Counted from the first letter of the stretch, positions 3,001 through 60,476 are shown. The stretch is DNA of 64,000 nucleotides from a virus (IMGVR_UViG_3300045988_147738:38432-102431), one strand, 5' to 3'. Program-made: numbers and translations. The notes: generated by a model not told the origin, from the sequence alone.

Positions 3001-4749
3001 AAAGTGGCAGCTAACGGAGATGAACAAGCTATTAAGAAATGGGATAAAACCTTACAAGAAATTGATGATAAAATTAATGGTGCAGAAGAAAGCTTTTTAG
3101 ATAGTTGGCAAGAAGCATTATAGAGAGCAAAAGATATCTTTGATGAAGAAATGAATAATATTATTCAAGAATTTGAAAAAGGAATTGCTCCTATTCAAGG
3201 CACCATTGATGCATTACAAGAAGCCATTGACCAAGCTAATGAAATTGATGCACAATATTTAAGTGATACTGATAAAACTTATGAATTAAATAAATTAAGA
3301 CGTTAGATTGAAGGTTCTATAGAAGATACTGATATTATCGCCCATAAACAAGCATTGAATAAATTACAAGATGAGTTAAATAAAAAATTAAAAGATGGTT
3401 CTTAGATTAGTGAATATGATTTGAAAATTTTACAATCTAAATATGAATTAGAATTAGCACGTCAAAAATTAGAAGATACTCAAAATAATAGTGAAGTTGT
3501 ACGCTTGACTCGTGATAATAATGGTAATTGGGGATATGTATATAGTGCCGATGAAGATAAAATTGCTGAAGCCGAATAGGCCTATGAAGATAAATTAAAT
3601 GCTTACCAAAAAGCAAATGAAGAATATTTAAAAACTCTTGAAAACAATATTCTCCAAGTGTAGGCGGACTATAAAGAAAAACTTAAAGAAATAGAGTTAG
3701 GATTGGCTGACGGAGAAATAACAAAAGAAGAAGCTGAAGCTAGAATTGCTAATTTGAACGATTGGTATTTAAATAAGATGCAATATCTTGAAGGCGAATA
3801 TAAAAAGTTATTTGAAAATAGTCAAGACGCAACAGAAAAATTCACTTCATATTATTAGACTAATACTGATAATATTAAAAATACATTTGAGAAAACTACT
3901 TTAGCTATTAAAGGTGGATATGAATCATTAGACGCAATGTTCAAACGATTCTGGGAAAGTCATGACAATGTATTAGATAATTCAATGAAACTATTAGATG
4001 ATCTCAGTAAAAAATAGGATGAAATAAATCAAACTGCTGGTATTGAAGGTAGTTTTGCTAATGAGGCCTCTGGTTGGTCTATTAAGATTACTGGTGATTC
4101 TGATAAGGCATTAGCTGATATGGATGGAATAGTTAAGAACGCTACCGATTCCTTCAAAGACGTTATTGAAGCAGCAGGTAAATGGGAAAAAATTTATAGT
4201 GAAAAAATTAATAGTGCCATTGATCGGAATGAAGCTCTCGTGATTAGTCTTAATAAAATGGTTGCATTATTATCTGGAATAGATAGCATCGATTATAGTA
4301 AGTATGGAAAGAAAATAGATTCTCGCGCTACCGCGACGGATAATAATATAATTAGCACTCAACATAATTCTAAAAGCTTTAACAGTACTGATTATATTGC
4401 AGAACAATCTTTCCCCTTAACTTATGATATATTTGATAGATTAGATATGAGTAAATAGATAGATGAATGGATGTAGAGTAATGAATTAACAATTGATACT
4501 GCATTAATTGATAGTTTAGATGTATCAAGTATTTTACAAAGTATAGGATTAAATGTTTAGACTATTGTAAATTATTTATCTAATTTAACTCCTTCTTCTC
4601 TTGGTATTGATAGAATTGCACAAGAATTGATGCAGCAAGTCTCTATTAATGCTGATTTCCCAAATGTGACTGATAGTAATGAAATTATGGAAGCATTTGA
4701 AATGATGGAGAATGAAGCAAGTCAATACGCTAGTCGAAAGACTATTTAA
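1..4749 (+). CDS. Tail tape measure protein, 5'-truncated at the window edge. Frame 1 is open from nt 1 to the TAA at 4747-4749, reading through dozens of in-frame TAG codons. At least 1583 aa.
   Basis: Frame 1 was hand-checked over 1-4749 and contains only TAG triplets, no TAA or TGA. Composition is long, helical and rich in E/K/Q/L, with a Gly-rich linker (GGGLEMGGEVTGGTKPSGVTGGNGGGGSSGGGGG) around 1790-1915. A hairpin terminator follows directly. The four frame-1 ORF-track fragments (619, 1396, 2566, 4120) are all pieces of this one frame. Confidence 0.8.
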
Positions 4750-4756
4750 TTTAAAT

Positions 4757-4789
4757 GGCGAGGTTTAATTACCTCGCCATTTTTTTATT
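4757..4789 (+). terminator. Rho-independent terminator after the tape measure gene
   Basis: Stem GGCGAGGT, loop TTAATT, stem ACCTCGCC, followed by ATTTTTTTATT. Confidence 0.7.
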
Positions 4790-4861
4790 GGTCAAATATA
4801 AATAATAAAATAAGATTTTTTCTTAAAAATTATTAGAATATGAGAAAAAGGAGAGCAAATT

Positions 4862-7669: not shown

Positions 7670-7689
7670 GAGTAAAAGGAGAATGATGT

Positions 7690-10600: not shown

Positions 10601-13600
10601 AAGACAAAGTTAAAATATTGAATTTAGAATAGTTAAAAATTAGAGTTAGAGAATTAATTCCTATTTATGCAGTTCCTTATGATTATATTACTCAAGAAGG
10701 ATGGGATAAATTACCAGACTCCGTTGTTTATTGGAATTCTAATGGTATGACTACGAGTTGTTATAAGGATAAAAAAGAAAAAAGATTTAGTCGTAGTGAT
10801 TATGAAAATTTATTTCCTAGTTAGAATTTATTATATTCAGTAACACCTTTTGGTAAACCTTATCCTATTGATGCATTAACTCCATTAGTCAAAGATTATT
10901 TTGATATTAATGATGAATTTTGTGTATTTTAGATGTTTGAATATTCAAAAGAATATCAAACTTGGATGCCGACTTGTCGAAATAATGTTTTTAATATTGC
11001 TACTGGACAATATTATGATTGTTATTGGCAATCTGTTCTTAAAGAGTATGATACATCATATTATATTGGAGAAAAATATCGTTATGAATAGATAGTCGAT
11101 ATCCAACGGGATGAAGAAACACAACGATATTATATTATAATTCAAAATAAAAAATATTATTTATCAGATGAATTTAATTTGTATGTTGAAATAAACGGAG
11201 AGTATAAATTATTAAAAGAAGTATATTTATTCCCAACTGATGAAGATGGATATTATACTATTATTACTAATAATGATTCTCGTATCCAAGATAATAGTTA
11301 TTTAAATGAAGCTGTTCGTTGGAAAAATAAAGATGATTATAACCCTGTTCCTGGGTATAATTTAACTACTAGAACTATTGATGAAAATAATATTGCTAAA
11401 TCAATAGTAAAAGCTTCTGAAATTAAACCATTTTATTTGAGAATAGATAATGCGATTCAATTAAATCAAGGAGATACATAGTATTATACAAATTTAGGTT
11501 CTCCAAAAGTAATAAAAATTGGAACTGGATTAATCGCTGAAGCTACATTTTAGTTAGAAGTATTAGACTATTTTACAGAAAAGAATGATGATAGTACATT
11601 TTTAGCTAAAAATAGATATTTAGAGCGATCTGAAATCTTAAAGAATTTTTATCGAAATTATGAAATTTTAGGAGATGCTGATAATAATTTTTAGAGATTT
11701 TTAACATTGAGTCGTTTTTATAATACGTTATTAAAAGGATTAACTGATAGCAATAATACTCCTTATGAAGATAAAAATACATATTAGTCTAATTTAAATT
11801 CACCATTGAATTATCAGGATAGAACTATTGTAAATGAAATTTTAAATACCGATAAAGACATAGATTTAAAAAATACTGAAATTGCTGATTTATGGACAGC
11901 AGATAATTCTTCACCTGAAAAGAAAAATAAAATCAAGAATGATATTAAAACTACGATAAATAAAATGCAAATAAATAAACGTATGAAAGAAGAATTAGTT
12001 TTACAAGATACTGAAGAAAATGATTTATTTGATTTAATTAAAAATCCTACTAAAGAAGGTATAAATGATAAATTAGCTAAATTAAATGAACTATATGAAT
12101 TATTAAGTTCTAATAAAAATACTACTATTATAAATAACTAGAATATAGCTTCTGATTATGCTTAGAAATTAAAAAATATAGATTTTGCAGTTAATTCTTA
12201 TAATAATGCAATCTATAATTATAAAGCTCATTTATGGTTGTATTGTTTAATTTATCAAAAAATTGCTAAATTAATATATATTGATACAGATAATTATGAT
12301 GAAAAATTATTAACTGAAGATACATTAGATAAAATGGAAGCTAACATTTCAATTTCTAACATTTTAGCTGAAATAAAAAATCATTATAATAAAATAATAG
12401 AAAATAAAAGTGAGAATGCATCTAATGAAGCAGAATTAATAAAATAGAAAAACTATTATTTAAATGCTTATGGAAGTATTTAGAAAAATTATTCTGAAAT
12501 TTTTACTTATAAATCAATTATAAATGAAAAAGAAGGAGATACTGCATTAGATGAATTATTAATAAAACAATTAATGAATTGTTTATTAGATATTTTTTAT
12601 CAATATTCTGTAATGATATAGGCTCGTAAAAATATAAATGAATTATTGAATGGTAAGGCTTAGGATGAAGATACAGATATATTTAAAAAATATATTGGAA
12701 TTAATGAAAATGCTGATTTGGCTCTCAGTAAAGTTAAACAAAAAATTAATACTTTAAAAATTGAAGTCATTAATAATAAAGACAATTTAACATTAGCAGA
12801 TTTATTTTCATAGTATAATTTTTCTAAAGATAATGTTTCTTATTTTAATTCATTAAATTAGAAATTAACTTATTCTAAAAATAATGTTTTAGGATTTTTA
12901 GATAGTCATGCCACTCAAGTAAAAGAATATGTCCAAAAAATTGATTATATGGAGTATATTTATAAAGGTGGTAAAGCTTTAGAATGGTAGCATTATAATT
13001 ATTCTCATTTTATTGGATTTGATAGATTGCCATATCAATTATGGGATTTAAATTCAAAAGATATAGATATAAAAAATTACACTTATGAAATTGAATTTAG
13101 ATCAAGAATTTTAAAATCATTTAGTTATTGGAAAGATAATAATTTTGGAGAAGAAGCTCCTGCTTATATATCTACTATGAGTTCAAATCAATAGAATGAA
13201 ATACGCAGTCAAGTTAATCGTAAAATTATTTTAGATATTAGTGAAGATAATATTAATACTGATGATTTAGATATTTATACAAGTTTTGAATTTGATGGAT
13301 AGATGGACTCAGCTGAATAGAAAGCTATTCAAAAAATTAAAATTCAAAAATTGTTAAGTATTATTGAGACATTTAAAGAGGCAACAGATTATCGTAGTGT
13401 ATTAGATAGTTTAAGTGATTTAATTTCATATATGAATAAAAATACGAATGGGCTTGGAGAAACTTGTTTTAAAACATTATATGGAGTTTCTGGCGATAAA
13501 GATTTAATTACAATACTTACAAATTATAATTAGACTATAAATTCTATTCAAGATGAATTAATAAAAAGTAATGAATTAGATACTTAGTTTATTAAAATTG

Positions 13601-14796
13601 GACAAATTAGTAAAACTGATTTTGATTTTTTCAATCCTTCTAAAGTTTACTATATTTTAAAAGATGATAATTATTAGTTATAGACTGTTTATTCAAATAC
13701 TGCTATTTATTATTTAAAATTAAAAGATTATTTAGTAAAAACTCATTTTGAATATTATAATGCATTAATGGTAGCAAAAGATTATTAGAATATTACAACT
13801 GAATTGATTTATAGTGTTTTAAATTCTTAGAATACTAAAAAAGCAGAATTTGAATTAGGAAAAATGCAATTATATAATTCAAATGGTTTTGTTCCTACTG
13901 TTATCACTAAAGAAAATTATCAAGAGTGTAATAATTTTGTTTATAATAATGTTACGAAATTTGAACGACAAACATTTGATTCAGCTATTAGTTATGATAA
14001 AAAGTCCAAAGATACATTCTTAGCGAAAAATATCACTGGTGGAGATAATGCATTATCAAGTCATAATAATTCAATTAATGCAATTTTAACTAATTATAAT
14101 AATTTAATAAAGAAAAATGGTATCGTAAATAAATTATATTCAACTTATTCAAAATTAGGCAATACCCCTATTGTTTTTACAGATGAGGGAAATAATGCTC
14201 TTAATGCATTAGATTTGTCTAAAATAAATATAAGTATATTAACTGCATCAGATACAACAGCAGTAGGAAAATTTAAACATCTATTATTAATTAAATATTT
14301 ATCTAAATTTATTAATTTGTTCTATTGGTGCAACACTTAGTTGTTTGTTGAATATGATTTAAATATTCGCTTAGCTGAATTATATACTAATTTACCAAAA
14401 CCATGGTCTGAAGCTTCTGAGAACTATCCTTCTATAACTGCTCATGGTATTGTATATTGGTATTTAGAATATGTTTTAAATAAAGCTATAAATGATTATA
14501 ATGATGCATTGGAATAGGCGGAATTATTAAATATTTTTTATACAAACAAATAGACAAACTATAAAGAGAAATAGGCATTATATGAGGCTAAATATAAAGA
14601 ATATTTATAGATTTTTACAGCATTTATGGCTCCTGAATATAAGGAATATTGGAAATATTATAACTCATCTGATATATTTAATAAAAATGAACAAATGAAA
14701 AAGTTAATTGAAGAAGTCAAAAATCTATGGTATGATTTTATTTTAACTCTTGATAAAGGGTTCAAAAAAGAGATAGAGGCGGGTATGTACCAATGA
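7690..14796 (+). CDS. Giant tail or baseplate structural protein, 2368 aa. It is a single frame-1 ORF spanning eleven ORF-track fragments.
   Basis: AAAGGAG RBS, then ATG at 7690. Frame 1 was hand-verified between every fragment (7953-8299, 8631-8722, 8907-9091, 9519-9889, 10569-11179, 11481-11806, 12141-12238, 12447-13351, 13533-13864, 14340-14796). It contains only TAG triplets until the TGA at 14794-14796. No RBS or start follows any internal TAG. Confidence 0.6.
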
Positions 14797-23942: not shown

Positions 23943-23990
23943 ATATAATTTTGTTTTATATAAAATTTAAGATAGAAAGGAGATACTTGC

Positions 23991-26900
23991 ATGAGCAATA
24001 AACGATTCATCCCTGTTCGTGGTACTGAAGCTAAATTAGATTTAATGGGTTTTAATGATGGGTATGTTTATTTTGCAGTTGATACTGGTAAAATTTTCAT
24101 AGACTATACTCAAGCTGATGGTACAATGGTATCACGAAAGCTTTTAGGAAGCGGTAGTGGTGGTGGCTCAGGAAGTAATTCTGGTATTTATTATGCCAAT
24201 TATACTCCGACTGATGCTGAAAAATTAGAAGATGAAATCAATATTCCAATCGGAGCTATTGAAGGTGGAGAGTACCCTGAAGAAGATGATTTAATTATCA
24301 ATTTAGGTAATAATTGTTTTTATCGTGTAATAAAAGTTCAGCGAGCATTTCAAAATGTGCTATGTCGTCGTTTAACTGTTGCTGGTGGAGGCGGAGGAGA
24401 TGACCCTAGTTCATTGGCTTCTGACATTGAATTAACTGTAGACTCATTACCTACTGTTAACTTAATTAATGGACGCTCTCAAGAAATAACATTTGTTGCC
24501 ACATCAGCTAAAAATAAAAAGGGTAATTCTTATGACTCTATTCTAACAATTAATTGGAAGTTAGAATATACTGATGATGGCACCAATTATAATCAATATA
24601 ATTCAGGAACATTCCAAGTGCCTGATGGTGAGAAATATGCTTTTGAATTTGGTAAATTGGCCAAAGATGATGCTTCTTCAAGATTAGTATTAGTGGCTAG
24701 CCAAACCAATCATCCAAGCACAGTTACTCGTTTGATAACATTTAAAACTTCTAAGTTAGAATTACAAGAATCAAGTAGTTTTTCTAATTTAAGTTATTTC
24801 GAACCTAGTAAATTAGTATTACAATGTAATGTTAATGGTGCTATGGATAAAATTGTTGAATATTATTTTGACAATGAAGATGAACCATTTTTAAGTGTGC
24901 CCTTAGCCGCCAATTCGGCTACATTATAGACTGTTAATGTTTCACAATATACCCCTGTAGTTAATGGTTACCATAAAGTTTGGATTCGTTTATTCCAATC
25001 GATTAATGGCAAAAAAGGAATCGAAGTTAATCCTTTAATTTTTGAAGTAGCTGTTTATGATGGCCTAGACCCTCAAGCTCCTCCAATTATTTGGTTAGGA
25101 GACTATAAAGATGAATATTATAATTATGACACTATTCAAATTCCTTTCCGTGTTTTTGACCCATAGGCTGAAAACCCAGTAGTGCATTTTAAACGTAATA
25201 ATATTGAACTTTCTTATTCTCCTCAAACAATTACAGATTCTAAGAAATTTGCTATTTTTGAAATTGCTAATCCTGAATTAAATGTAATTAATCACTACAC
25301 TATTACTTGTGGTGATGGAGCTCGTGAGACTACTCGTAAAATTGAAATTCGTGTTGTAAATGACCCGACAAGAATAGACTTTGGTATTTAGAAGCAAGGC
25401 TTCTTAACTTATTTATTAAACACAGTAGGTAGTGGACGTTCTAATTCTGAAACGTTGGCTAAACGCACTACTTTAGTAAATTCTTCTACAGCTCTAGGGG
25501 CTGAACCTTGTGCGGCGACGTTTACTAATTTTAATTGGTATAATAATGGTTGGACTACGGATGAAGATAATAAAACTTGTTTACGTATTAGTAATGGTGC
25601 TAAATTATCTATTCCTATTGGTCGCACTGTATTTTCAAATCCTAGTGGCTCTCAAGCTACTGAGCAGTCTCATAGTATTGAATTAACTTTCAAAATTCGT
25701 AATGTTTAGGATTATTCAAATTTAATTCGTACTATTACTCGTTATAAAAATGATGAAAAATTATATAAAGCATTTTATGATGAAGAAACTGGTAAATTTA
25801 ATACTACATACACCAACTATGATGCATTTTTAGCTTGGTATTTAAAAACTTATGAAGTTGAATTTGTTGATAAAAAAGGTAATAAGCGTAGAATGGAATA
25901 TGATGACTTAGAGTTCAGTCATATTGCCAAGCAAATTAATTTAAGTAATGTTATAGGTAGTTACTCTTCTGGTAATACTAAAGCCGTTACTGGTTTATGC
26001 TTAGGACCATAGGATGCGTTTTTCTCTAATGGTACTGATACCGTAAACGTATCTTATGTAGAAAATAAAATTATTACTTTATCTGTTGTATGTAAATATA
26101 GTAAAGAAAAAATTCAAAATTTAATTTATATTTATTTAAATGGTGTACTAACTAGTGTTGTTAGAAACACTCAAGAAAATGGATTTGTTGTAGAAAATGA
26201 TAAAATTGAATTTAACAGTGATTATTGTGATATTGATTTATATAAGGTCCGAGTATATCGCACTGATTTAAACGTTAATGATATTGTCATGAATTATGCT
26301 GCAGATTTTGAGAATGTAAATATTTACGATCAAAATAAATTAGCAGAAGAAAATACTGCTATTGATGAATTCCAGTTTAGCTATACTAATATGATAAAGT
26401 ATAATAATGAACACCCTGATGCCCCATTAATGCCTTATATTATTTTTGATACTACTAAATTAGAAGATAGTGAAAATAAACTTCCTTATTCTAAAAAGGT
26501 TAAATTAAACGTTGGAGTTGAATTTGTTAACACTCCACTTGAAATGTATTATAATAAAGGTAAATTGGAAGAATTGGCTAAGGCTGATAAATTATTTGGT
26601 GATGGTGCGACAGCAGCTGAAAAACAAAAAGCTGTTGAAACTTATTATAAATATCATTGTCCTTCATTTATTAGTGATAGCGCATCAATGAGCGTCCAAG
26701 GAACTTCATCTGAATTCTATCCTCGTAGAAATTATAAAGTTAAAACTAAAAATAACGATGCGGTTGATGGCGAAAAGCGCGTTAATATTTTCTTAAACCG
26801 CGGTCCATTCAGAGAATAGTATAATGCTGATGTATTAGGTTCTACTCAGAAACCTTATATTTTAAGTACAACATTGGGGCCTCTAGTTGATTCTGCTACT

Positions 26901-29900
26901 GGTCAATTAAAAATTAAATATTATGAAGATGAAAATGGTGAAAAGGAAGTTACATTTAGTGAGACTAATCCTTATAAACCTAATACTTTTTATATTGAAA
27001 ATACTGCTTACGTAAAACGTGGCAATGAAAAAACTCGTCAAAAATATTGGTATTTTAATAATTATACTTGCGGAACTCATAAATTTACTATGAAGATTGA
27101 CTACATGGAATCTTCTGGAACTTATAATATGGGATTTGCAAATATGGTTAAAAATGCTTATTCTAAACATCCATTAGACGATTATAATAATGCAAAAGCA
27201 TTTTAGGTTTTAGACCCTGACAAAACTGTTGAGACTGAAACAACTGAGTATGTTCCTGGAACTACTTATACTTATTATAATCATAAGGGTAATCCGAAAA
27301 CAGCAAGTAATGAAGTCTTAGAAGATAATATTGTGATTACCAGCAAAGAAGATTTTGATTTAGGTCCATACGCATTATATCAAAAATTAATGGCTGAAAA
27401 TCCAACTGTTTATTCAAAATTAAAAGTAGCTGATTCAAGTAATCCTAAATATAATAAATGGTATATTATGAAACCTGGATACAGCGATTTTAAGGTTGAA
27501 AATACTGATGATTATCGTACTTCTGTACGAGGGTTCCGTGTACTTGCATTCCATAAAAAGAAACCAGTCGATGGTAGCACAGAGCCTATTTATCAATTTA
27601 TTGGTATATACAATATGCTTTTAGATAAAGGTTCTGATGAAGTATATGGATTCGCACTTGACAGCACTACTGGTAAAGATCCAAAAGCTAAATTTATAGG
27701 CGATGGTACTAAGAGTATGCCTAAAGTAGCAGAATGTTGGGAGTTTGAAAACAATAGCCGCACCTTCTGCTCATATCGTGACCCACAAGACCGCAAAGAT
27801 TTGAAATTTGATGTATTTAATGCTGATGGTTCTCGTGTATTAAATGCAGTTCAATCTGCCCCTGTGGTAGCAGACTCATTTGAATATCGTTATCATAATG
27901 ACGAAGATATTCTTGATTATATTATGGCTCCTGATGGAGAATGTAAAAAAGACCCAACATTAACATTCTCTAAGGATGATATTACATTAAATCAAGAAAA
28001 TCGCGCTCAGCATTTATTGAAAGATTATTCTAATTGGGAACGCGCTGTAGCTTGGGTTTGGAGTACTTGTACTGAAAAAGTTGTATCAAATGGTACTTAT
28101 AAAATTTGTGATGTTGGTGAAGAGTTATTTGATAGTAATAAACATTATATTATGACAACTAATCCATTAACTTCTGAATAGATTTATACCTTAGCTGAAG
28201 AATATATAGAAGGCACTACTTATTATAAAAAGAATCCTGACTATAATCCTAATCAAGAAAATAGTCATGAATATATTGTTGCTTATGTTGGAACAGTATT
28301 ATTTAGTGCTATTAAAACTAAATTATATACTGGTGAAATTGATAAAAATAATAATATTACTTATGTTCCTTGTTATAGTACTGATACATTTAACCCCGAT
28401 AAACGTTATTATACTTTGGAATCTTATAGCGATGAAGAGTTAGATACAAAGGCTGATAGATTAGTTGTTTTATGTAAAGATGAAACATTTGATGCAAGTA
28501 AAACATATTATAATTATGATGGAAATGCTAAATGCGGTAAAGCAGTGACTAAAGCTACTGTAACTGCTGAAACTTATGAGCCAAATAAATATTATATTGG
28601 AACCACTATTATTTATGGTGACCGCTCTTATAAATATGATACACAAGAGTATCGTGGTGATAAATTTACTTATGAATTAAGTGACCACTTCGATAAAGAA
28701 TATATGGCTACATATTTTGTTATGACAGAAATTTTTGAATGTTATGACTCTCGTGGTAAAAACTGCATGATGGCTTCTTGGGGTCCTCAAAAGAAAGGCG
28801 GAGACTATATTTGGTATCCAATTTTCTATGATATTGATACTCAATTAGGTATTAATAATACTGGTATCCCTTCATTTGAATATAATGTTGATGCTACTGA
28901 AGATGGTAACTATTCTACTTCTGATAGTGTTTTATGGAATAACTTCTATAAATATTTTAAAACTGGTTTAATTATCCCTAAATATAGACATTTACGTGGT
29001 ATTACTACTGATGTATTTGATTCTAATTTAAAACAACCACCTTTAAAAACTGTTGATCGTATTGAGTCATATTATTTAACTGATTATAATATAACAAATA
29101 ACTTAGCTGACTTGGGCACACGTCCATTAGTAGCAGTTAATTTAGATGAATATTATAAATATATCACTATTACGAATGATGCTTCTTACTTAGATGGTAC
29201 TACTGGACATATTAGTAGTGATACAACTGGTGTATATACTGTTGATACTAATGGTACTTATTTCTATGCTTTACAAGGAAATAGAAGTCTATCTCGTCAA
29301 CAGTTCCTATCTAACCGTTTAGAGTATATTGACTCTTGGTTAAATGAAGGTAACTATCAACGTGGTGGTGCAAACCGCATTCGTGGTCGTGTTGCTGCGA
29401 ACAATAAAAATAAAACTTCAGATAAATGGATTGAAACTGCTAGCGAGCCTTATTTCAAAGATGAAAGCACTTTAACTAAAAATCATTTATTTGATGCTGA
29501 ATATTGGATGACATTAACTCCAGCCCACTCTTCTTATGTTACTCTTGGTGATGACAATGAAGCCTATCCTTCTCGTAAATATGATGGTGTTCATGCACTA
29601 AGATTTAATATTGATTCTATTGAAAATGGTGTCCGTAAGAGTGAAAATTATCCTGAACAATTACTATATGTTTATGGTATTAATCAAATGAAAGACCTTG
29701 GCGATATGAGTAATCTATATTGGCAAGAGTTTGAAATTTCTGGTGATGCTACTAAATTAACTAGTTTGAAATTAGGATATGATGGTTTGGATGAAAATGG
29801 AGAGCGTTGGCATAATGACAATGTTAACCAATTCAGTATTCCTGCCAGCTCTTCTGATAGTAAAGGCATGCCCTTATTAAAAGAAGTAAATATGAGTAAT

Positions 29901-32165
29901 ATTCAATTTAATGCTGCTTCTCCTATATTAGATTTAACCAGTTGTGAAAAATTAGAGAATTTCCGTGCTACTGGTTCTAATTTAATTAATGTCTAGTTTG
30001 CTAAAGGCGTCGCATTAAATACTGTATATTTACCTACTAGTATTACAAATCTTGAATTAGTTGAAGCTAATTTATTAAAGAATGTAATCACTGAAGATGA
30101 ATATGAGAATCCTATCCGTGATGATGAAGGTAATTTACATGCTAATCCTGGTTTATATCTCCAAGGTTTCTTTGATAAAACCTCAACTGGAGATAAGGGC
30201 GATACAGTAATTGCTTCTCTAAATATTGCTGGTGGTGGCTTAGGCTATGATAGTTATAAACTATTAAAACAATATTATGCTATCCGCAGTCAATAGACTA
30301 ATACTTCTCAAATTTCTATGACCGATGTTAATTGGTGTCCATATGTTTAGATGACTGTTGATGATGAACGTAATCCATCTACTATTTATTATGTGGATAA
30401 TGGACATTATGGACTAGAACCTTATACTTATACTAATTTTGATGCATGGACTATTAAAGTTGAAAATGGTGAAATTTATCGTAAGGATGAAACAATTCCA
30501 GAAGATAAAATAAATCAAATTACTGATTTAGCTATGTTTAAAGAATTTATTAGTGATAAAAAATGGGTTAAAAATTCTAGTAAAAATATTCCTGATATCT
30601 CTGGTATTATTTATATTAATAATACAGAAGTTATTAAAGAATCTGAATTACGTAATATTATTCAAGTCGCTTATCCTGATTTAACAATTTTCTGTGCAAA
30701 CGTTGAATAGGGATATACTGCTAGATTTGTAATTATGAATGAAGATGAAGGTAATGACGGTCGTTATCAGTTAATTGGCTCTATGACTTTAAAAGATGGC
30801 GAAACTTGGTTTGCTGATCCTATTGATACATTTGGTGATGTTAGTGAGAAAAAGCCGAATCATGATTTCTATGGTTGGGCATTGACAAATTCTGCTAGCG
30901 CTGATATTCTTATTAATATTGATAAAAGTATCAATAAATGGAATGAACAAACTCTTGATAATAATATTCATACTTATACATTCTATGCTATTTGTCCTAT
31001 TCACAAATGGAGTGTTAAATATTATTATAAAGATAGTACATTAATTGAAGAGAAAAAAATCCCTCATGGTAATTATGCTGTAATGTCTACTATTATTCCT
31101 TGGAAAGATGATAGTGATTTACCATTGGAATAGACCTATAAATTCTTAGGATATAATCGTTCTGCTACTTCTAATACAGTTATGAAATTAGAAGAATATA
31201 TGATTACTGAAGATACTACTTTCTATGCCGTATTTGATTCTAATCCTATAAGTGTTTATGATGATATCCATACTGAATATTTTGAGCCTACTACTCAAGA
31301 ATATAATTCACTATCTTCTCCATCTTCTTGGATATTTAGCGATCCAACAGAAGGTTTTAATAGTAAATGGTCTGTAATGAGTGATGGTATTGTTTTAGGT
31401 TTATGCAAAAAAGTTAAAGGTAAATTGACAGTTCCTGCATTTTATGAATACAATGGTAAAAAATTAAAAGTTATTGGTATTGATGCTTCATTTAGTTCTC
31501 CTGGTGATGTTACTAATAGTAACCAAGCAACGCCAAATGCTAAAACGATTGGTGGTAATACTATTGTAGCAACTTGTTATGGAGAAGATTTAACTCATGT
31601 ATTCTTCGAGAAGTATACTGATAATGATGGTAATTAGAAATGTAATATTAGAAAATTTAATATCGCTACATTCTCTCATTCTTATGGTTTAAAATGGGTA
31701 GAATTCCCTGAAGGCTTACGAGTAATTGATGCTTACTGTTTTGCTTTAAATGGCGATCGTGATAAAAAATTAGTTGGTTCTTTAGAAAATGCTAATATTA
31801 GTGGAACAATTACTGAAATAGGTTAGAGCGGATTTAAAAATAGTTTTAGTCCTAAAGTTGAGACATTAATTATTGGTCCTTCTGTGAGCTATATTGATGT
31901 TCAAGGTATTGATTTCTGGTCTAATTCAGATTTGAATAAAGGATTAACTGGTGGTATTAATAAAATTATTATTGGTACTCCAGAAGAAAAATCTAAATTA
32001 TATACTTAGAAAAAGCTCGATTATGGTTCAACAGGTATTAGAGGATATAGAACCAATGCTGATCGTAAGATTAATAGTATTGATTGGTATACTACATTAT
32101 CTCGTGATGATACTATTTCAGTCTTTGGTAGCGGTATTGATACCAGTACGGTAAATTATTTATAA
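23991..32165 (+). CDS. Giant fibre or receptor-binding-type protein, 2724 aa. It has the shared N-terminal module and C-terminal BspA-type leucine-rich repeats.
   Basis: AAAGGAG RBS, then ATG at 23991. Frame 0 was hand-verified across all eleven ORF-track fragments (25182, 25455, 26289, 26874, 27333, 28416, 30351, 30735, 31182 and others) with only TAG triplets until the TAA at 32163-32165. N-terminus: MSNKRFIPVRGTEAKLDLMGFNDGYVYFAVDTGKIFIDY. The C-terminal region near 31640-32160 has IG..AF...IxIPxSV-type repeats. Confidence 0.6.
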
Positions 32166-32378: not shown

Positions 32379-32422
32379 TTGGGTAGTTCCAATTATCTAA
32401 TATATAACTTTTTTGAAAAATA

Positions 32423-32450
32423 GAGAGAAGAGATTAATTCTCTTCTCTCT
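32423..32450 (+). other. Perfect hairpin, weak terminator candidate
   Basis: AGAGAGAAGAG, loop ATTAATT, CTCTTCTCTCT. The downstream T-run is poor. Confidence 0.35.
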
Positions 32451-32490
32451 ATAAGGGAAAATTATTTTAGAAAGGAAGGTTTTCTAGTCT

Positions 32491-36897: not shown

Positions 36898-36904
36898 AAA
36901 AAAA

Positions 36905-36938
36905 TAGCAGATAACTGAAATGTTATCTGCTATTTTTT
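36905..36938. terminator. Bidirectional rho-independent terminator between convergent genes
   Basis: TAGCAGATAAC, loop TGAAAT, GTTATCTGCTA. The hairpin is flanked by an A-run upstream and a T-run downstream. Confidence 0.7.
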
Positions 36939-45442: not shown

Positions 45443-45449
45443 AAAAAAT

Positions 45450-45495
45450 GGGAAGTGAATCATTTAGAATCACTTCCCATTTTATTATTTTCTAA
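45450..45495. terminator. Bidirectional rho-independent terminator at the end of the + strand late module
   Basis: GGGAAGTGA...TCACTTCCC hairpin between an A8 run and ATTTTATTATTTT. Confidence 0.65.
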
Positions 45496-48781: not shown

Positions 48782-48822
48782 AGCCGAGAATTAAGTTTTA
48801 TTTAATTCTCGGCTATTTTTTA
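48782..48822. terminator. Bidirectional rho-independent terminator
   Basis: AGCCGAGAATTAA, loop, TTAATTCTCGGCT, followed by T-rich sequence. Confidence 0.7.
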
Positions 48823-51557: not shown

Positions 51558-52052
51558 TCACATTTTTTCCCATAAGTCAAATGGAGCATAATAAACTTTT
51601 TGATTGCGTGAGCCACGCATAGGTAAGGTAATATCTCGTTGCTCAATCTTGAATGGGCCGTCAATAATACAGTCAATATTATCAACAATATTTTTTAGAT
51701 GTGGCTCTCTACGCATAGCCAATTCATCCATTGTATACCCAGTCCATAAGAAAATTTTTGTTTTGGGAAGAGCTTCTTTAATATGTTCAATAATTAAATC
51801 TACAAGAAATAGATTTTCTGGGGCGAGAGGCTCTCCACCCATAATACAAAAATCACGATGTATACCATTAGCAGTAAGAGCATTCACTATATCATCTAAT
51901 GTATCTGTAGTAAATTCTTTTCCGCCATTAAAATCCCAAGTTTCTGGATTCTAACAACCTTCGCAATGTCTTGCACATCCTTGAATGAAAAATGAGACAC
52001 ACACTCCAGGAGCTCCAGCAATATCATTTTTAATTATTCCTGCGTATCTCAT
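51558..52052 (-). CDS. nrdG: Anaerobic ribonucleotide reductase activating protein, 164 aa. Extends ORF-track fragment 51558-51887 through one in-frame TAG.
   Basis: The extended N-terminus reads MRYAGIIKNDIAGAPGVCVSFFIQGCARHCEGC-TAG-NPETWDF. It carries the radical-SAM Cys cluster missing from the ORF-track fragment. Its ATG overlaps the nrdD TGA (ATGA). Confidence 0.75.
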
Positions 52053-54298
52053 TCCATCACTCCTACGTGTTTGACTCGATGTTCAACTTCATCTTGCTTT
52101 CCTAAATTAAATGCAGTTTTATAATTACCAGTTAAATAGCCGGTCACACGACGAAGTTGCTGGATTTCTTTACTACCACATTCTGGACATTTATCATTGA
52201 ATTCACCAGTATATCCACACTTGAGACAAGTGTCATTAGGAACATTTACAGCAAAATAAGGAATATCTTTATCCATAGCATAATTTACAATTTGTTCAAG
52301 AGCAGTTAAATTATTAGATACTGTAGAATCTAACTCAACATAAGTAATACAACCGGCATTACTATATCCAGTCAATTGACTCTCAATATCAATTTTGTCA
52401 AATGGGCTCATTTCTTTCCATACAGGAACATGAATTGAATTAGTAAAAAATTCTTTATCACTTACATTAGGAATTTCGCCATACTTAGCCTTAAATTTCT
52501 TCATTGCAGTATAGCAGAGATTTTCCGCGGGAGTGTAATAAACACCGAAGTTTAATTTATATTGTTCCTTAAATTCCGCACAACGCTGTTTAAATAAGGA
52601 TTCAATTTTTTTTGCTAATTCCATTCCTTCTGGAGTAGTGTGGTCAACGCCAATAAGAATTTGTAGAGTTTCTGCTAGCCCTAACTGGCCTAGAGCCAGT
52701 GTTCCATGTTTAAGCGCACTTCTAATTCCTTCTTCTGGAATGTAGCCTGCCATCAAATTATTTTCATACATGAATTTAGCTGAAGCTGGGCTTTGAGAGC
52801 AAATCCAATTAAAACGTTCAATTAATTGATCTTTTGCTTCATGAATTTTTTCATCAAGTAAAGTCATAAAACTTCTAATTCTAGCAGCTTTTGGAATTAA
52901 TTGAAAATCACTGTTTTCAGTGGCTTCTTTTGCCAGCATAGCTAATGTAGGCATAATAATGGTTACTGGACAAATATTTCCACGACCATCTTTTAATTGG
53001 CCTAAGCCGTTAATATCATATCCATTAGCGGTTCGGCATCCCATTGTGCTAAAATAGGTGCGTGGGTTATTAATATCATAGCCAGCATTTTCAGACCAAT
53101 CAACATTCGCATAATTAGGATATAATCTTTTAGCAGTAGATTTTAACGCAAGTTTAAATAAATCATAATTCGGGTCACCTGGTTCTCTATTAACACCCTT
53201 CATGCATTGGAAAATTCCACAAGGGAAAATAGAAGTTTTATGTAATTTACCTAATCCTTCAAGAGACACTTCTAATAGGGCTTTTGTAATCATTCTTCCT
53301 TCTGGAAGAGTACAAGTTCCATAGTTAATAGAAGTAAATGGAAGTTGGTTACCACTACGACTTTGAAGAGTATTTAAATTATGATACATACCTTCAACTG
53401 CTTGATGGATTTCTTTTTCTGTCTGTTTTAGAGCATAATTATAAGTATTTTGATGACCAAATTGACTTTGCAATTCTTTATTAGAAATTTCAATAGGCTC
53501 ACAATCACTCATAATTTGTAGAGCCATACCTTCACTATAATCATCAACATCAGTTAAATAGGCTTTAAAATGTTTTCTAAAACTCTTTTTAACATAAGGA
53601 ACCATAGTCCAATCAAGATGAGTAGCACTAACTCCACCAAACTGTTGAAGAGATTGTAATTGAAAAATAACTGCAACTAATTGGAATGCTGTATTTACTG
53701 AACCCGCTGGACGCACATCTGTTTGACGAGTATTAAATCCATTAGCAAGTAAATCATCAAATGGAATTGATAAACAGTTATGGTCGCCCACAGCATAATG
53801 GTCAAGGTCGTGAGTGTAAATCATATTCTCTTCATGATTACGTTTTGTGCGAGGAGATACGATATAATCAAGGGCATATTGTTTCATTAAGAGACTATTG
53901 GCTTCCCCCATACGCCCACCAAATGATGCTTCATCAACATTAGCATTTTGATTTTGAATATTAGCTCCACGAATTTTTTCACCAATCGCAGTAATAAATT
54001 CAGTTGAATGAGTGCGAGCGACTTCTTTTTTATATCTATAGCGAATATAAGCACGAGCAATATCAGGACGCTCTGATGCCATTAACGCTTCTTCAATCCA
54101 ATTTTGGATGTCTTCAACATTAACACTTCCATCGGGGAAATGACTCGCTCTATATTCTACTTCATCAGCGATGCTATTAATACTATCTGATTCAAAAATA
54201 TTTTTATCTACAGCAATAAATGCTTTAGTAATAGCATCAATAATTTTTTGTTTGTTAAATGGCATTACATCGCCATTACGTTTAATTATATAAAACAT
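52049..54298 (-). CDS. nrdD: Anaerobic (class III) ribonucleoside-triphosphate reductase, 749 aa
   Basis: C-terminal Zn ribbon CLKCGYTGEFNDKCPECG and glycyl-radical-type RRVTGYLTG. Length and nrdG coupling match the family. No TAG codons. Confidence 0.85.
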   Translation of the reverse strand: MFYIIKRNGDVMPFNKQKIIDAITKAFIAVDKNIFESDSINSIADEVEYRASHFPDGSVNVEDIQNWIEEALMASERPDIARAYIRYRYKKEVARTHSTEFITAIGEKIRGANIQNQNANVDEASFGGRMGEANSLLMKQYALDYIVSPRTKRNHEENMIYTHDLDHYAVGDHNCLSIPFDDLLANGFNTRQTDVRPAGSVNTAFQLVAVIFQLQSLQQFGGVSATHLDWTMVPYVKKSFRKHFKAYLTDVDDYSEGMALQIMSDCEPIEISNKELQSQFGHQNTYNYALKQTEKEIHQAVEGMYHNLNTLQSRSGNQLPFTSINYGTCTLPEGRMITKALLEVSLEGLGKLHKTSIFPCGIFQCMKGVNREPGDPNYDLFKLALKSTAKRLYPNYANVDWSENAGYDINNPRTYFSTMGCRTANGYDINGLGQLKDGRGNICPVTIIMPTLAMLAKEATENSDFQLIPKAARIRSFMTLLDEKIHEAKDQLIERFNWICSQSPASAKFMYENNLMAGYIPEEGIRSALKHGTLALGQLGLAETLQILIGVDHTTPEGMELAKKIESLFKQRCAEFKEQYKLNFGVYYTPAENLCYTAMKKFKAKYGEIPNVSDKEFFTNSIHVPVWKEMSPFDKIDIESQLTGYSNAGCITYVELDSTVSNNLTALEQIVNYAMDKDIPYFAVNVPNDTCLKCGYTGEFNDKCPECGSKEIQQLRRVTGYLTGNYKTAFNLGKQDEVEHRVKHVGVME

Positions 54299-54310
54299 TT
54301 ATAACCTCCG

Positions 54311-54354
54311 CACTAAATATAGTGGAAAAAATTAGGATATCCACTATATTTAGT
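54311..54354. promoter_or_regulatory. Perfect 16-bp inverted repeat immediately 5' of the nrdD RBS. NrdR-box-like operator pair, or a leader hairpin.
   Basis: CACTAAATATAGTGGA (54311-54326) and TCCACTATATTTAGTG (54339-54354). Each arm fits the near-palindromic NrdR-box shape CwAtATaTwG. Confidence 0.4.
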
Positions 54355-54370
54355 GTTTGTTGTAAATAAA

Positions 54371-54967
54371 TTAATAAGTTGTGTCCAGATGCTCCGGCCA
54401 CTGAGACAGAAATAATGCTAAATCTTTATATATACATTCTAATTCCGCGGGAGTATTATTTATATATAACCAATTACATAAATCATCAGCGTCTTCAAAA
54501 TCAAGTTTATCTGTTTTATATCGACGAATAATTTCATCAATATCCGGGTTAGCCTCTCGATTTAGCTATCTAATTAATCGAATTTTATCATCTGCGTGAA
54601 TATAAACGATAATTAAATTTACTCGTTTATCATGTAATAAAATCTCTGCGCCTTCTGGATTAAATACTCCTACATTGATAGCGCCTTCTTTGACTGATTC
54701 AATTCCTGTGCCATAGCACCATTCATTAAAAACAGTAGCTTCAAACATTTGATTCTATAAAATCATTTCAGCAAATTTTTCTGCTGAGATAAAATGGTAG
54801 TTAATACCATCCACTTCTTTTTCTCTTGGAGGTCTTGAAGTATAACTTATAATTTCATGTAGAGGTAATTTACCATTATAATAATGTTTTGTATCATCAA
54901 TTAGTTTACGGAGAATGGTATCTTTACCACTCCCCGCTTCACCAATTAATGCTAATATATTATACAT
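54371..54967 (-). CDS. P-loop (d)NMP / guanylate-kinase-like protein, 198 aa. Joins ORF-track fragments 54755-54967 and 54566-54748 plus a further segment through two TAGs.
   Basis: P-loop GEAGSGKDT in the first fragment, Gmk-like ...FNEWCYGT... in the second. The TAGs at 54755-54757 and 54566-54568 fall inside the conserved fold. TAA at 54371-54373. Confidence 0.65.
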
Positions 54968-57900
54968 TAATTAGCTCCTCCATTGTATCTTTCATCTTTT
55001 AATTCAATATCACCATTATCTAAAATTTTATCAATTTTATACAACTGGTGACCGCCAGAACTAGCATACTTTTTTGCTATAAAATTATCGCCTTGACGAA
55101 TGCCTTGAACAGCAATCATATTACCACGATTAAACCAACTTTTTTCCATTACTTTTTTAGTGCCATCAATTTGTTTTTCTGAAATCTGTTTATCAAATAA
55201 TGAGAAATATTCTTTTCTAAATTTAACTTCGACAACTCCAGAAGTAGTAAGTAATGTAACTGTAGATTTAGTTTTATTTTTAGCAATACAAGTTCCGCAA
55301 ATCTTATGTAATTTATACATAGTAATTGTTTTATTGCCTTTAGAAAATGTTTTATCAATAATGGGCTCTTCTGGCAGATGGAAGAAATCAACAAATCCAT
55401 ATTTACTATTATTTACATGGGCTAATTCATGCTCATGATAATAGAAACATAAGACTTCCATTTCCCACGCTGAAATAGATTTAGATGCATATTTATCCCA
55501 ATCTTCTTTAAATATTTTATTATTTAATTTATTTAAAATAATATCTTTATTTTCTGCAATCCAAGTTCGGAATATATCCATATATTTTTGATATACTTTA
55601 TCCCAAGCTTTAGAATCTAATAAATAACAACTACCAATTAAATCATCGCAACCAATTTCAATTAAAAAATTAATCGCTCGTTCATCAACTTTATAGATAT
55701 TACCATCTTTACAAACAGCTTTTAAATATCTATTAAATTCATAAACTCGTCTTGCCATTACATATTCATCTTTATCTTCTGGTAATAAATTATAACGAAT
55801 TAGAGTTGCTAAATTTTGTAATGTTAAACGAGATTTTTTATCACACGTTTCCCAAATATACCAAATCATTAAATCTTTACGGTCCATCATTTCATCAAAT
55901 GCACCGCTTTTAATCAATGAAATCATTGCTTGCTTACTTGGTTTAATACGATAATAAAAATCTTTCACTGATATATACGGACGATTTGCAATAATATTAT
56001 TAATCAAATCATCGCCAACGTTCAACAATCCTTTTAAGCCAAATAAAATTTGGTTATTTTCAACATCAGGCGCAAATCCAAATCTAGCTTTATTAATATC
56101 AGCCAAACTTACTTTAATACCAGCTGACTGTATATCTCCAATAGCTTTTGCGATTTTACCATAATCAGTGCTAGCTACTTTTTTATTTTTTGATTTATTC
56201 TCCATTATATCTTCTGGAGACGCACCACAATATTCTTCACCGGAATAATCATAATCTTCATCAGTTATTTCTTCTGGTTTATTTTCTAACGCTCCACTGT
56301 TTACAATTAAACAAGCGCAATTCCAATAAATAGGATTGAAATTAATTGCCAAATAAATCATTTGAATTGCAACAAATGAATAAGGAAGAGAGTGATTTAA
56401 GCTAAACGCATATCCTAACTGAGGAGCGATCGCATTTTCCCAAAAATATTCAGCATTATGTTCATTAGTAAATTTACTAAATACTTGCTCTTTTAATTGA
56501 GGAATTTTTGCCATTTGCTTTTTAGCAACAACTTTACGCGCGCTATTTGCTTCGCCTAATGTAAATCCAGCGACATCCATAAGGATTTCCATCATTTGCT
56601 CTTGAAGTGGACAACATCCATAATATCTATCACAATGCTTGTGCATTTTTTCAATCATTTCTTCTGGCAAATGATTATCTTTCATTTCTTTATCAAAAAC
56701 TTGAATACCAGCTTTTTGGATTCGATAATATCTATCTTGCTGACTTTCTTTGCCCTTTTCACTCATTAGACGCATCATAGCGTTTGCAGCGGTCATTTCC
56801 ATAGGATCTTTTGGTTTCAATTTTTTAGCAATAGCTAAACCTACACCAGTAGAGAATTGGAATACGTCAAGAATATCTCCTGCCGCCAAGTGTTCCCAAA
56901 TGCGTTTATCAGAAGTATCTATTACTTCTGGATGAAGATATTTATTATAAAAATCACGTAGACCAATATCAGGGATTTGATTATCTTCTTTTAATAAATT
57001 ATAGCATTGAATAATTTTATCGCAAGCTTCTGTTACCAGGAAGTCATATTTAGTATCTCCGGCGGCTTCGGCTTTATGTAAGTCCCAACAAGTAATTAAA
57101 TCACCACTAGGAGTTTTCATAAATGATGCAGTTTCAAATGGGTCTTCACCATATAAAATAACACCAGAAGCATGAGAAGAACGTTTATTAATAATTCCTT
57201 CAATATATACAATAATATCCAATAAACCAGGATATTGATTTACCTTTTGGATAAATGTAGTAACTGGCTTTCTATCTTTATCAGGATTACCATTTACCAC
57301 ATCTTTCATCGGCCATAAAATTCCACGTTCCTGCGGGATTAATGAAGACATAAATTGAGCTTCATCTACATCAATACCATTGGGATAATCATCACTTCTA
57401 TAGCCACGACAAGCAGTTAAGATTGCTTGCTTTGTTCCTTCAGTTCCAAATGTTGCAACTTGAATTAAACCTAATGTTCCACGTTCTTTACGAATAGCAC
57501 TAAAAATTGCAGGGCGTTTACTTGGCGCAAGATCGATATCAATATCAGGCAATTCCGCGCGCTCTAAATTTAAGAAACGCCAATATGGTAATCCCCAACG
57601 AATTGGATCTAGCTGAGTAATTCCTAATAAATAATTAGATAAGAAACCAGTTGCTGAACCTCGACCAGGACCAACAATACTCCCGCACTCCCAAAATAAA
57701 TCAATATAATGTTTAAATGTATTAAAATAAGCAAACAAACAGTCTTCAAGTTTTTCGCCAATATTTTTAATTACATTAGCTTCAGTTTCAAGACGAGATA
57801 TATATATTTCATTCTCATATAATTGTTTTTCTTGCAAGGCTTTAATACATTCATTTACCCAATATCGTTCTTGAATATCATCACTATTAATTAATGAACA

Positions 57901-58938
57901 AATAACAGGATATTTCTCAAGCCAATCTGCTGGAATAAATCCTTTTTTATAATCAATTACTTCTACTCTTGGAATTTGTTGTTTACGTTCCAGAGAATAA
58001 AATTTTATTTTCTTTTGAATTTCTAATGTATTGTCAAAAATCCAATTCATAATCTCTTGAGGAGTTTTATCTTTATCCCAAGTATCCATATATGGTAGCA
58101 TTAATTCTTCTACTTCATCACTATTCATTACATAAGCAAACTCATAGAATGAATCAACTTCACGCTCGCCATCTTTAGAATTTAAATAAGCTTTATGAAT
58201 TGGTCTATCTTTCTTTGTTAAATAATGAGCATCGGTTCCAATTACCATTTTTAAATCATATGCTTTTGCTACTTGATAAATCTTTTGATTTACTACAAGT
58301 TGGTCTTTCATGGTAGATGGAGCGCACTCCAAATAAAAATCATCTTTACCAAAAACATTTATACAAAATTCAATGAATTTAACAACATTATTATAATAAA
58401 TGCTTTTAGTTTGCATATCGCCTACTACTTCAGCCTCATACATTGGATATAAATTAGAACCTAATTCACCACCAATGCAAGCTGTTGTTGCGATAACATG
58501 TCCTTTGTATTGTGCCATTACATTTTTTAATTCAGACTTTAATGTTGGCACACGTTCCATTTTTCTATCAGTATAAGAATTAATCCAAGCAATTGAACTT
58601 AATTCTTTTAATGCTTTATAACCAATTTCATCTTTTGCCAATAGAATAAAATGATAATACTTTTGACCACAATCTCTTGTATCAGTTAAATAAATTTCAT
58701 TACCTAGCGCAATAGTAAAATCAGGATGCTCTTTTAAAAAATCTTTTGCAAATTGATTAACTTCCATATGAGCAGATAAACAGTCATGGTCAGTAATTGC
58801 TATACCACTTAATCCTAATTTTTCTGCTGTTTTAATCAACTCTTCTGGTCTATTAATAGAATCTAATAAACGCAGATTTGAATAGTGAGTATGGTTGTGT
58901 ACGCCAAAATATGGTCGCATAATCCACCTCTTTCTCAT
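54967..58938 (-). CDS. DNA polymerase III alpha subunit (DnaE-type, N-terminal PHP domain), 1323 aa
   Basis: N-terminus ...HNHTHYSNLRLLDS...GLSGIAITDHD. Length and architecture match Pol III alpha. No TAG codons. AAGAGGTGG RBS. Confidence 0.8.
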   Translation of the reverse strand: MRKRWIMRPYFGVHNHTHYSNLRLLDSINRPEELIKTAEKLGLSGIAITDHDCLSAHMEVNQFAKDFLKEHPDFTIALGNEIYLTDTRDCGQKYYHFILLAKDEIGYKALKELSSIAWINSYTDRKMERVPTLKSELKNVMAQYKGHVIATTACIGGELGSNLYPMYEAEVVGDMQTKSIYYNNVVKFIEFCINVFGKDDFYLECAPSTMKDQLVVNQKIYQVAKAYDLKMVIGTDAHYLTKKDRPIHKAYLNSKDGEREVDSFYEFAYVMNSDEVEELMLPYMDTWDKDKTPQEIMNWIFDNTLEIQKKIKFYSLERKQQIPRVEVIDYKKGFIPADWLEKYPVICSLINSDDIQERYWVNECIKALQEKQLYENEIYISRLETEANVIKNIGEKLEDCLFAYFNTFKHYIDLFWECGSIVGPGRGSATGFLSNYLLGITQLDPIRWGLPYWRFLNLERAELPDIDIDLAPSKRPAIFSAIRKERGTLGLIQVATFGTEGTKQAILTACRGYRSDDYPNGIDVDEAQFMSSLIPQERGILWPMKDVVNGNPDKDRKPVTTFIQKVNQYPGLLDIIVYIEGIINKRSSHASGVILYGEDPFETASFMKTPSGDLITCWDLHKAEAAGDTKYDFLVTEACDKIIQCYNLLKEDNQIPDIGLRDFYNKYLHPEVIDTSDKRIWEHLAAGDILDVFQFSTGVGLAIAKKLKPKDPMEMTAANAMMRLMSEKGKESQQDRYYRIQKAGIQVFDKEMKDNHLPEEMIEKMHKHCDRYYGCCPLQEQMMEILMDVAGFTLGEANSARKVVAKKQMAKIPQLKEQVFSKFTNEHNAEYFWENAIAPQLGYAFSLNHSLPYSFVAIQMIYLAINFNPIYWNCACLIVNSGALENKPEEITDEDYDYSGEEYCGASPEDIMENKSKNKKVASTDYGKIAKAIGDIQSAGIKVSLADINKARFGFAPDVENNQILFGLKGLLNVGDDLINNIIANRPYISVKDFYYRIKPSKQAMISLIKSGAFDEMMDRKDLMIWYIWETCDKKSRLTLQNLATLIRYNLLPEDKDEYVMARRVYEFNRYLKAVCKDGNIYKVDERAINFLIEIGCDDLIGSCYLLDSKAWDKVYQKYMDIFRTWIAENKDIILNKLNNKIFKEDWDKYASKSISAWEMEVLCFYYHEHELAHVNNSKYGFVDFFHLPEEPIIDKTFSKGNKTITMYKLHKICGTCIAKNKTKSTVTLLTTSGVVEVKFRKEYFSLFDKQISEKQIDGTKKVMEKSWFNRGNMIAVQGIRQGDNFIAKKYASSGGHQLYKIDKILDNGDIELKDERYNGGAN

Positions 58939-60431: not shown

Positions 60432-60476
60432 AAATGAAAATAAGGGTTATATGGAGAAATACCTCTCCATATAACC
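60432..60476 (-). terminator. Hairpin plus T-run terminator on the minus strand after the lipoprotein gene
   Basis: GGGTTATATGGAG, loop, CTCTCCATATAACC. Followed on the minus strand by TTATTTTCATTT. Confidence 0.5.

Follow-up and report, generated by a model that had tools for sequence, protein, structure and literature searches.

A putative NrdR operator directly ahead of the nrdD-nrdG operon in a TAG-recoded gut phage

That phages make use of host regulators is already known: PhoB boxes stand before cyanophage pstS and phoA, and Fur boxes before Shiga-toxin genes. The LexA boxes of phage GIL01 are a further case in which a host regulator is used by a phage (PMC6182141). In bacteria, tandem NrdR boxes lie upstream of the ribonucleotide reductase (RNR) operons nrdAB, nrdHIEF, nrdDG and nrdJ (Rodionov and Gelfand 2005; Rozman Grinberg et al. 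2022, PMC9110341; PMC12051234; PMC13584703). An NrdR site is made up of two partially palindromic 16-bp boxes with conserved positions C4, A6, A8, T9, T11 and G13 (PMC13584703), separated by a linker that is canonically 15-16 bp long, with 15 bp predominant and 14-17 or 24-27 bp tolerated, and binding needs both boxes (PMC13584703, PMC12051234). With such a linker the box centres stand some three helical turns apart. NrdR forms a DNA-binding tetramer with dATP and ATP, and oligomers that do not bind DNA with ATP alone (PMC9110341). NrdR, present in 77% of bacterial genomes, also recognises operators of species other than its own (PMC13584703). In the Listeria nrdDG operator, whose boxes overlap the site of RNA polymerase, 13 bp separate box 2 from the ATG (PMC12051234).

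Here we analyse a 64,000-nucleotide stretch (hereafter the window, meaning the whole of this stretch of DNA) of a phage genome, in which 47 bp of the minus strand (54356..54310) directly ahead of the nrdD-nrdG operon probably constitute an NrdR operator. The site shares with bacterial NrdR operators its 16-bp partial palindromes, the six conserved positions, a 15-bp linker and its place 5' of an RNR operon, and its layout resembles the tight one of Listeria nrdDG, as 11 nt separate the end of box 2 from the nrdD ATG. It differs from them in lying on a ~197-kb TAG-recoded gut phage genome with no nrdR gene seen nearby, in having boxes that are exact mirror images of each other (16 of 16 positions, including a flanking base, against about 10 of 16), and in a box 2 that directly abuts the ribosome-binding site (RBS), GGAGG. 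As in the LexA, PhoB and Fur cases, a phage gene would be tied to a host sensor-regulator of cell state; unlike in those cases, control would fall to the dATP/ATP sensor NrdR and would concern an auxiliary operon of nucleotide metabolism. A full-text literature search returned no paper on NrdR boxes in a phage genome, and while host regulators have been used by phages before, we did not find this arrangement described.

The genes around the site all lie on the minus strand (Table 1). The nrdD stop and the nrdG ATG overlap (ATGA), and the genes upstream of nrdD overlap or abut one another. The 73-nt gap between the stop of the guanylate-kinase-like gene and the nrdD start (54371..54299) reads on the coding strand tttatttacaacaa ACACTAAATATAGTGG atatcctaatttttt CCACTATATTTAGTGC GGAGG ttataa ATG, so that the TAA stop of the kinase-like gene is followed by 15 nt and then, in order, by box 1, linker, box 2, GGAGG and ATG. 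The initial annotation had placed the repeat arms between an operon promoter region and the nrdD RBS; a sigma-70 scan found no convincing promoter upstream of nrdD. Sigma-70-like matches occur near the site at background frequency (7 found, 5.8 expected), and in the weak match listed in Table 1 the TATATT -10 candidate falls within box 2, from which transcription would start at about the GGAGG. By eye, the 15 nt that lead from the upstream stop codon to box 1 contain no conserved -35/-10 pair, and a scan for terminators between the upstream genes and nrdD found none.

Table 1. Coordinates of the putative operator, the neighbouring genes and other features of the window.
Feature	Position	Strand	Description
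NrdR box 1	54341..54356	minus	ACACTAAATATAGTGG; C4, A6, A8, T9, T11 and G13 all present; score 20/22
Linker	54326..54340	minus	atatcctaatttttt, 15 bp; box centres 31 bp apart
NrdR box 2	54310..54325	minus	CCACTATATTTAGTGC; C4, A6, A8, T9, T11 and G13 all present; score 19/22
Perfect inverted repeat	54311..54355		16-nt arms, 13-nt loop; formed by the two boxes and a single flanking base pair
nrdD Shine-Dalgarno GGAGG	54305..54309	minus	6 nt ahead of the ATG (54298-54296)
Weak sigma-70-like match	54316..54343	minus	TGGATA (54343..54338), 16 nt, TATATT (54321..54316); 9/12 matches
nrdD	52049..54298	minus	class III anaerobic ribonucleotide reductase, 749 aa; Pfam NRDD 1.8e-147
nrdD, extra domains			Pfam N-terminal ATP-cone 3.9e-21; Gly_radical 1.4e-09
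nrdG (activase)	51558..52052	minus	Pfam Fer4_12 3.6e-36, Radical_SAM 5.7e-09; TAG read as Gln
Guanylate-kinase-like gene	54372..54967	minus	upstream of nrdD; Pfam Guanylate_kin 5.8e-20
Pol III alpha-like polymerase gene	54967..58938	minus	upstream of the guanylate-kinase-like gene
Example ORFs for uneven TAG use	4844-7669; 7687-14796; 52049-54298; 54967-58938	plus; plus; minus; minus	
Other perfect inverted repeats	36899-36938; 45445-45483; 32420-32452; 60445-60476; 48782-48814; 4753-4782		at gene boundaries

A repeat search confirmed that two 16-mers at this site, 54311-54326 (CACTAAATATAGTGGA) and 54340-54355 (TCCACTATATTTAGTG), are perfectly (100%) complementary as first reported, with 13 nt counted between them rather than the 12 originally given. 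The arms had also been described as each nearly palindromic, and indeed six of the seven pairs in their 14-nt core, CACTAAATATAGTG, are self-complementary when read off the sequence. A search of the whole window with CACTAWATWTAGTG, allowing up to two mismatches, returned two matches only, the two arms. In 100 Markov-1 random sequences of 64 kb (loops of 3-30 nt) the longest perfect arm averaged 11.6 nt and was never longer than 15; the 16-nt perfect repeat exceeds chance.

Scored over the whole window with a consensus-weight matrix, the box pair reached 39 of 44, compared with 31 for the next-best pair and 33 for overlapping alternative registers of the same site, and box 1 has the top single-box score in the window. 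The best pair in 300 Markov-1 random 64-kb sequences scored 31.8 ± 1.0, with a maximum of 35, so that in the comparison with shuffled AT-rich background, which had been set beforehand as a refutation test, the site stands at 39 against 35. A single match to the six positions is frequent in this AT-rich window (24 seen, 22 expected). For a second matrix we took box 2 of NrdR-like pairs from metagenomes, selected on the six invariant positions alone, and counted only the 10 non-imposed positions: both boxes, in either orientation, took ranks 1-4 among the 48 six-position matches in the window, with 4.0-4.5 bits against 0.8 bits for the next candidate. Both matrices were made for this analysis and are separate from the published 935-sequence NrdR-box HMM. 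The two boxes come closer to the consensus than do the E. coli operators with experimental validation that PMC13584703 lists.

An NrdD search in IMG/VR gave 485 relatives, of which the best 80 (69-99% identical, on contigs of up to about 200 kb) were kept; in dozens of related phage contigs NrdD is 69-77% identical to that of the window. Most of these best 80 of the 485 loci have the same order of elements, namely an upstream stop, ~15-20 nt, box 1, a linker of 14-17 bp, box 2, GGAGG or GAGG, and the start, and box 2 abuts or overlaps the GGAGG or GAGG in almost all related operators. When 21 distinct phage operators were aligned, the invariant columns were the box positions and the linker was variable. 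The boxes and their spacing have been kept across 25-30% NrdD divergence while the linker diverged, which indicates purifying selection on the boxes. In L043, L044, L048 and L139 the boxes are spaced by 26 bp and lie ~90 nt upstream of nrdD, a spacing that is longer by one helical turn and matches the long-spacer class of Streptococcus operators (PMC12051234). Across 1.28 Mb of fetched loci, pairs scoring at least 35 lie nearly all directly upstream of nrdD; in L043, L044, L048 and L059 a second high-scoring pair lies inside or next to an ORF for a membrane protein. The core pattern CTAAATATAG-N20-24-CTATATTTAG is present in 39 of 2.9 million IMG/VR contigs, once in each, and in 35 of the 39 it stands 7-16 nt before the NrdD start. 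Since only one box is left in some relatives (the 14 loci of the L042 group, L011 and L014), the two-box operator is common but not universal in related phages. A search from the L050 NrdD, aimed at variant linkers, returned almost the same loci. A loose pattern of paired six-position boxes matched mostly terminase and portal genes in IMG/VR; these are chance matches, and the pattern is therefore uninformative on the spread of phage NrdR operators.

The palindromes upstream of nrdDG had been called NrdR-operator-like in the initial annotation, and this description held on every sequence-level criterion that we applied: we identify the site as a putative NrdR operator because of its box match, its spacing (boxes joined by a linker of the predominant length), its position 5' of an RNR operon, its statistical excess over background and its conservation across related phages.

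The host of this phage is likely a member of the Bacillota, which are favoured by the Pol III alpha (39% identity with its counterparts in SPbeta-like Bacillus phages and in Enterococcus phages), by the NrdD (69% identical to that of a Thomasclavelia (Erysipelotrichaceae) phage and 66-68% identical to Erysipelotrichaceae and Clostridia genes) and by the frequency of Shine-Dalgarno motifs, which precede 30 of 38 coding-strand ORFs. A megablast of 8 kb against cultured phages found no close relative. The boxes are absent upstream of nrdD in the nearest cultured or deposited phages (TR-TP1, phiCD211 and Phass-1) and within 220 nt upstream of the nearest cellular NrdD genes (Erysipelotrichaceae, 66-67% identity); the gut Clostridia loci L112, L132 and L088 do have them. 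Thomasclavelia phage TR-TP1 (L160, locus 2495-5618) carries the nearest cultured-phage nrdD, which an inserted HNH endonuclease gene splits into two annotated CDSs and which overlaps the upstream gene. A blastn search of the 80-nt region against cultured phages gave weak matches (E = 0.02-8), and the recurrent one among them, to the Lactococcus 949 group, is a chance match inside the nrdI 3' end on the opposite strand; boxes are absent from the nrdH upstream region of that group. Phage-type nrdD was also seen on contigs binned to MAGs of very different phyla, in L081, L082 (labelled 'uncultured Mollicutes'), L120, L128, L133, L138 and L139 together with the phage-type operator and in L083-L085 and L118 without it. 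These are probably mis-binned phage contigs, and the taxonomic labels of the MAGs are therefore unusable for host assignment. As NrdR binds across species, the exact identity of the host is not critical, and NrdR proteins already available would suffice to assay binding to a synthetic 60-mer.

By analogy with the bacterial systems, we infer that the host possesses NrdR, that NrdR binds this site and by which route it represses. The NrdR tetramer of the infected cell, carrying dATP and ATP, would bind both boxes and cover 47 bp ending 11 nt before the ATG. If a promoter overlaps the boxes, bound NrdR could occlude it and so block nrdDG transcription; alternatively it could stop polymerases reading through from the polymerase and kinase genes. 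Because the upstream genes follow one another without a gap and the scan found no terminator before nrdD, such roadblocking is equally plausible. As phage DNA synthesis drains dATP, NrdR would change its oligomeric state and leave the DNA, and the reductase would be made. The phage reductase would then probably be produced only when the DNA building blocks of the infected cell run low. A rise of nrdDG upon a drop in dATP would agree with what was seen in S. pneumoniae, where phage infection strongly induces the NrdR regulon of the host (PMC6755750). The phage NrdD keeps an ATP-cone, and the enzyme may for this reason also be under feedback control through its own ATP-cone. If host NrdR does bind, an auxiliary nucleotide-metabolism operon would be wired to the dATP/ATP sensor of the host, with the enzyme made only once phage replication has drained the deoxynucleotide pool, and this would be a clear case in which a phage borrows a regulatory circuit from its host rather than bringing a regulator of its own. 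It would also constrain host prediction for uncultured TAG-recoded gut phages of 100-240 kb, whose host must then have NrdR.

At the RNA level, the locus can be set beside the RNase III processing hairpins of T7 early mRNA and the 5' stem-loop stabilisers of Bacillota, with which it shares a stable stem-loop between co-oriented genes just 5' of the RBS. It departs from them in its AT-rich 16-bp stem and 13-nt loop, in arms that coincide with predicted protein-binding boxes, in being a predicted fold only, and in being missing from some lineages that keep the boxes. It is possible, though somewhat doubtful, that the sequence has a dual use, in which the boxes of a read-through transcript pair into a 16-bp hairpin 5' of the RBS in addition to their role as operator, and in which this hairpin could serve as a processing site of the nrdDG message, as a 5' stabiliser or as an insulator. 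The overlapping or abutting upstream genes and the lack of a terminator call before nrdD favour such a transcript, whereas a promoter overlapping the boxes would give one without the 5' arm. Folding of the leader, proposed as a check in the initial annotation, predicts a stable structure (93 nt, -24.6 kcal/mol, z = -5.7, none of 200 shuffles as stable), and the operator alone folds at -21.9 kcal/mol (z = -10.8). Rfam 15 gave best matches of 13-23 bits (E 0.5-0.7) against gathering scores of 53-140, which speaks against a known RNA family.

Comparison of the 21 distinct phage operators also lends some support to pairing between the boxes. Box-to-box mirror pairing reaches 80% against 74 ± 1.3% in shuffled sets (0 of 500 shuffles reach it), and the covariation score is 0.176 against 0.096 in shuffles, although the operators are related by descent and these shuffle tests therefore overstate significance. 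Within boxes there is neither excess pairing nor covariation. Inverted complementarity exceeds direct identity in 19 of the 21 (12.3 against 9.5 of 16 positions), whereas the two are equal (10.3 and 10.2 of 16) in 32 context-validated bacterial operators, a control set of metagenomic loci next to an RNR large subunit or nrdR that were kept after context filtering; a fold z of -3 or lower is found in 62% of the phage operators against 19% of the bacterial ones. Positions 2 and 15 switch together, being C...G in the window type and A...T in the L017 type, a change that breaks the within-box palindrome and keeps the between-box pairing. In 4 of 20 operators (L034, L050, L082 and L138) the linker extends the stem significantly, and NrdR binding is indifferent to linker sequence (PMC13584703). 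The window linker, on the other side, adds nothing to the fold, and uncompensated stem changes occur, such as C, T or A at position 3 of box 1 against a fixed T in the L007 group. Several lineages (L005, L024, L039, L071, L080 and L133) have good boxes with little or no hairpin (MFE 0 to -8 kcal/mol). Template-switch correction of quasi-palindromes can perfect repeats without selection, and could in this way explain the perfect repeat.

The mirror symmetry is not needed for NrdR binding, because synthetic boxes in direct repeat bind NrdR well, and five validated bacterial operators are far from mirror-perfect (PMC13584703). Something else may therefore also act on the sequence. The two-fold symmetry of the NrdR tetramer, which we considered as the cause of the mirror repeat, is disfavoured by the lack of mirror excess in validated bacterial operators, by the binding of direct-repeat boxes and by the asymmetry of L005, L024 and L036 in flipped orientation. 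The 5'-UTR hairpin that had been offered as an alternative to the operator is thus upheld in part: a stable fold and a mirror excess exist in this phage group, and against it the boxes persist without a hairpin in several lineages, for which reason the hairpin is not the conserved core. We regard the putative NrdR operator as that core, and a selected RNA or DNA structure as a possible, if somewhat doubtful, extra layer in this lineage. In the L050-L052 operator (locus ~3935-3985) box 2 is degenerate, with the conserved G13 displaced, and yet few hairpins of the set are stronger (-22.6 kcal/mol, z = -8.3), the stem being prolonged into the linker by GGCA/TGCC; the structure may have outlasted the operator in this lineage.

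Since NrdR can do without the mirror symmetry, one may ask whether a single sequence acts at both the DNA and the RNA level. In the fullest version of this idea, which we think unlikely, a sink for the host repressor and an RNA leader hairpin are combined in the same sequence and the mirror symmetry has been selected for both. Each copy of a high-copy phage genome would carry a near-consensus, two-fold-symmetric site and would titrate the small NrdR pool, so that the host RNR regulon would be derepressed and feed phage DNA synthesis, and the same 47 nt, when transcribed from upstream, would fold into a hairpin in the leader by which the nrdDG message is processed or stabilised.

A regulator encoded by the phage itself, be it an NrdR of the phage's own or a dimeric repressor unrelated to NrdR, is a very unlikely reader of the site. 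The window covers only 64 kb of the ~197-kb genome, which leaves room for such a gene and makes the searches for nrdR weak tests, and carriage of nrdR by some gut phages (PMC10294663) favours it. Against a phage NrdR, tblastn gave no nrdR match in the window and 147 loci, a weak test with the approximate query of E. coli NrdR, and a back-translated NrdR C-terminal motif occurred in 9 IMG/VR contigs, none of them of this phage group; N-terminal patterns of NrdR matched 3 unrelated loci only and were uninformative. An unrelated repressor would hardly be expected to require the exact NrdR consensus and spacing.

It is highly improbable that the operator is a relic that arrived with nrdDG from a bacterium and is now non-functional in the phage. 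The loss of a box in the L042 group, L011 and L014 would fit a relic, and nrdD has no in-frame TAG (0 against 33 CAA/CAG) in a TAG-recoded genome, which fits foreign origin or early expression. The persistence of boxes and spacing at 25-30% NrdD divergence beside a diverged linker argues against it, as do boxes nearer to the consensus than validated E. coli operators.

The window has further perfect inverted repeats at gene boundaries (Table 1), with arms of 12-17 nt and loops of 5-11 nt, mostly flanked by A- or T-tracts and several of them between convergent genes, and these look like intrinsic, partly bidirectional terminators. A purely structural origin of the nrdD-leader repeat, as terminator or processing site in RNA or DNA with a coincidental likeness to NrdR boxes, has next to no probability in our estimation: its stem is stable like that of a structural element and it has such neighbours, but these have short loops, G+C cores and the A/T-tract flanks typical of terminators where its own loop is 13 nt long, its stem AT-rich and its sense strand free of a T-run, and pure structure would neither fix C4, A6, A8, T9, T11 and G13 in both arms, nor hold a spacing of 14-17 bp in lineages without pairing, nor match NrdR preferences specifically at the non-imposed positions. 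An intrinsic terminator in particular was rejected, as the terminator scan made no call at this loop and stem, and CGGAGGTTATAA comes next on the sense strand.

The phage reads TAG as a sense codon: over the whole window, ORF coverage rises from 43 kb in the standard code to 71 kb when TAG is taken as sense. No tRNA gene was found in the window. The use of TAG is uneven, with up to 30-45 in-frame TAGs in each of the plus-strand structural genes and, as in nrdD, none in the Pol III alpha gene (45 CAA/CAG). The guanylate-kinase-like gene has in-frame TAGs at 54566-54568 and 54755-54757 (minus), and gives ORFs of 70 and 60 aa in the standard code and a full-length guanylate-kinase-family protein of 198 aa with TAG as Gln. 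In nrdG the only in-frame TAG (51953-51951, minus) is codon 34 and immediately follows the radical-SAM cysteines of the CxxxCxxC motif. NrdD could thus be translated in the standard code, whereas its activase would need the suppressor tRNA, and the nrdG TAG may act as a second timing control on the nrdDG operon. Two giant ORFs with TAG as sense, 23964-32165 and 7687-14796, both on the plus strand, have 2734 and 2370 codons.
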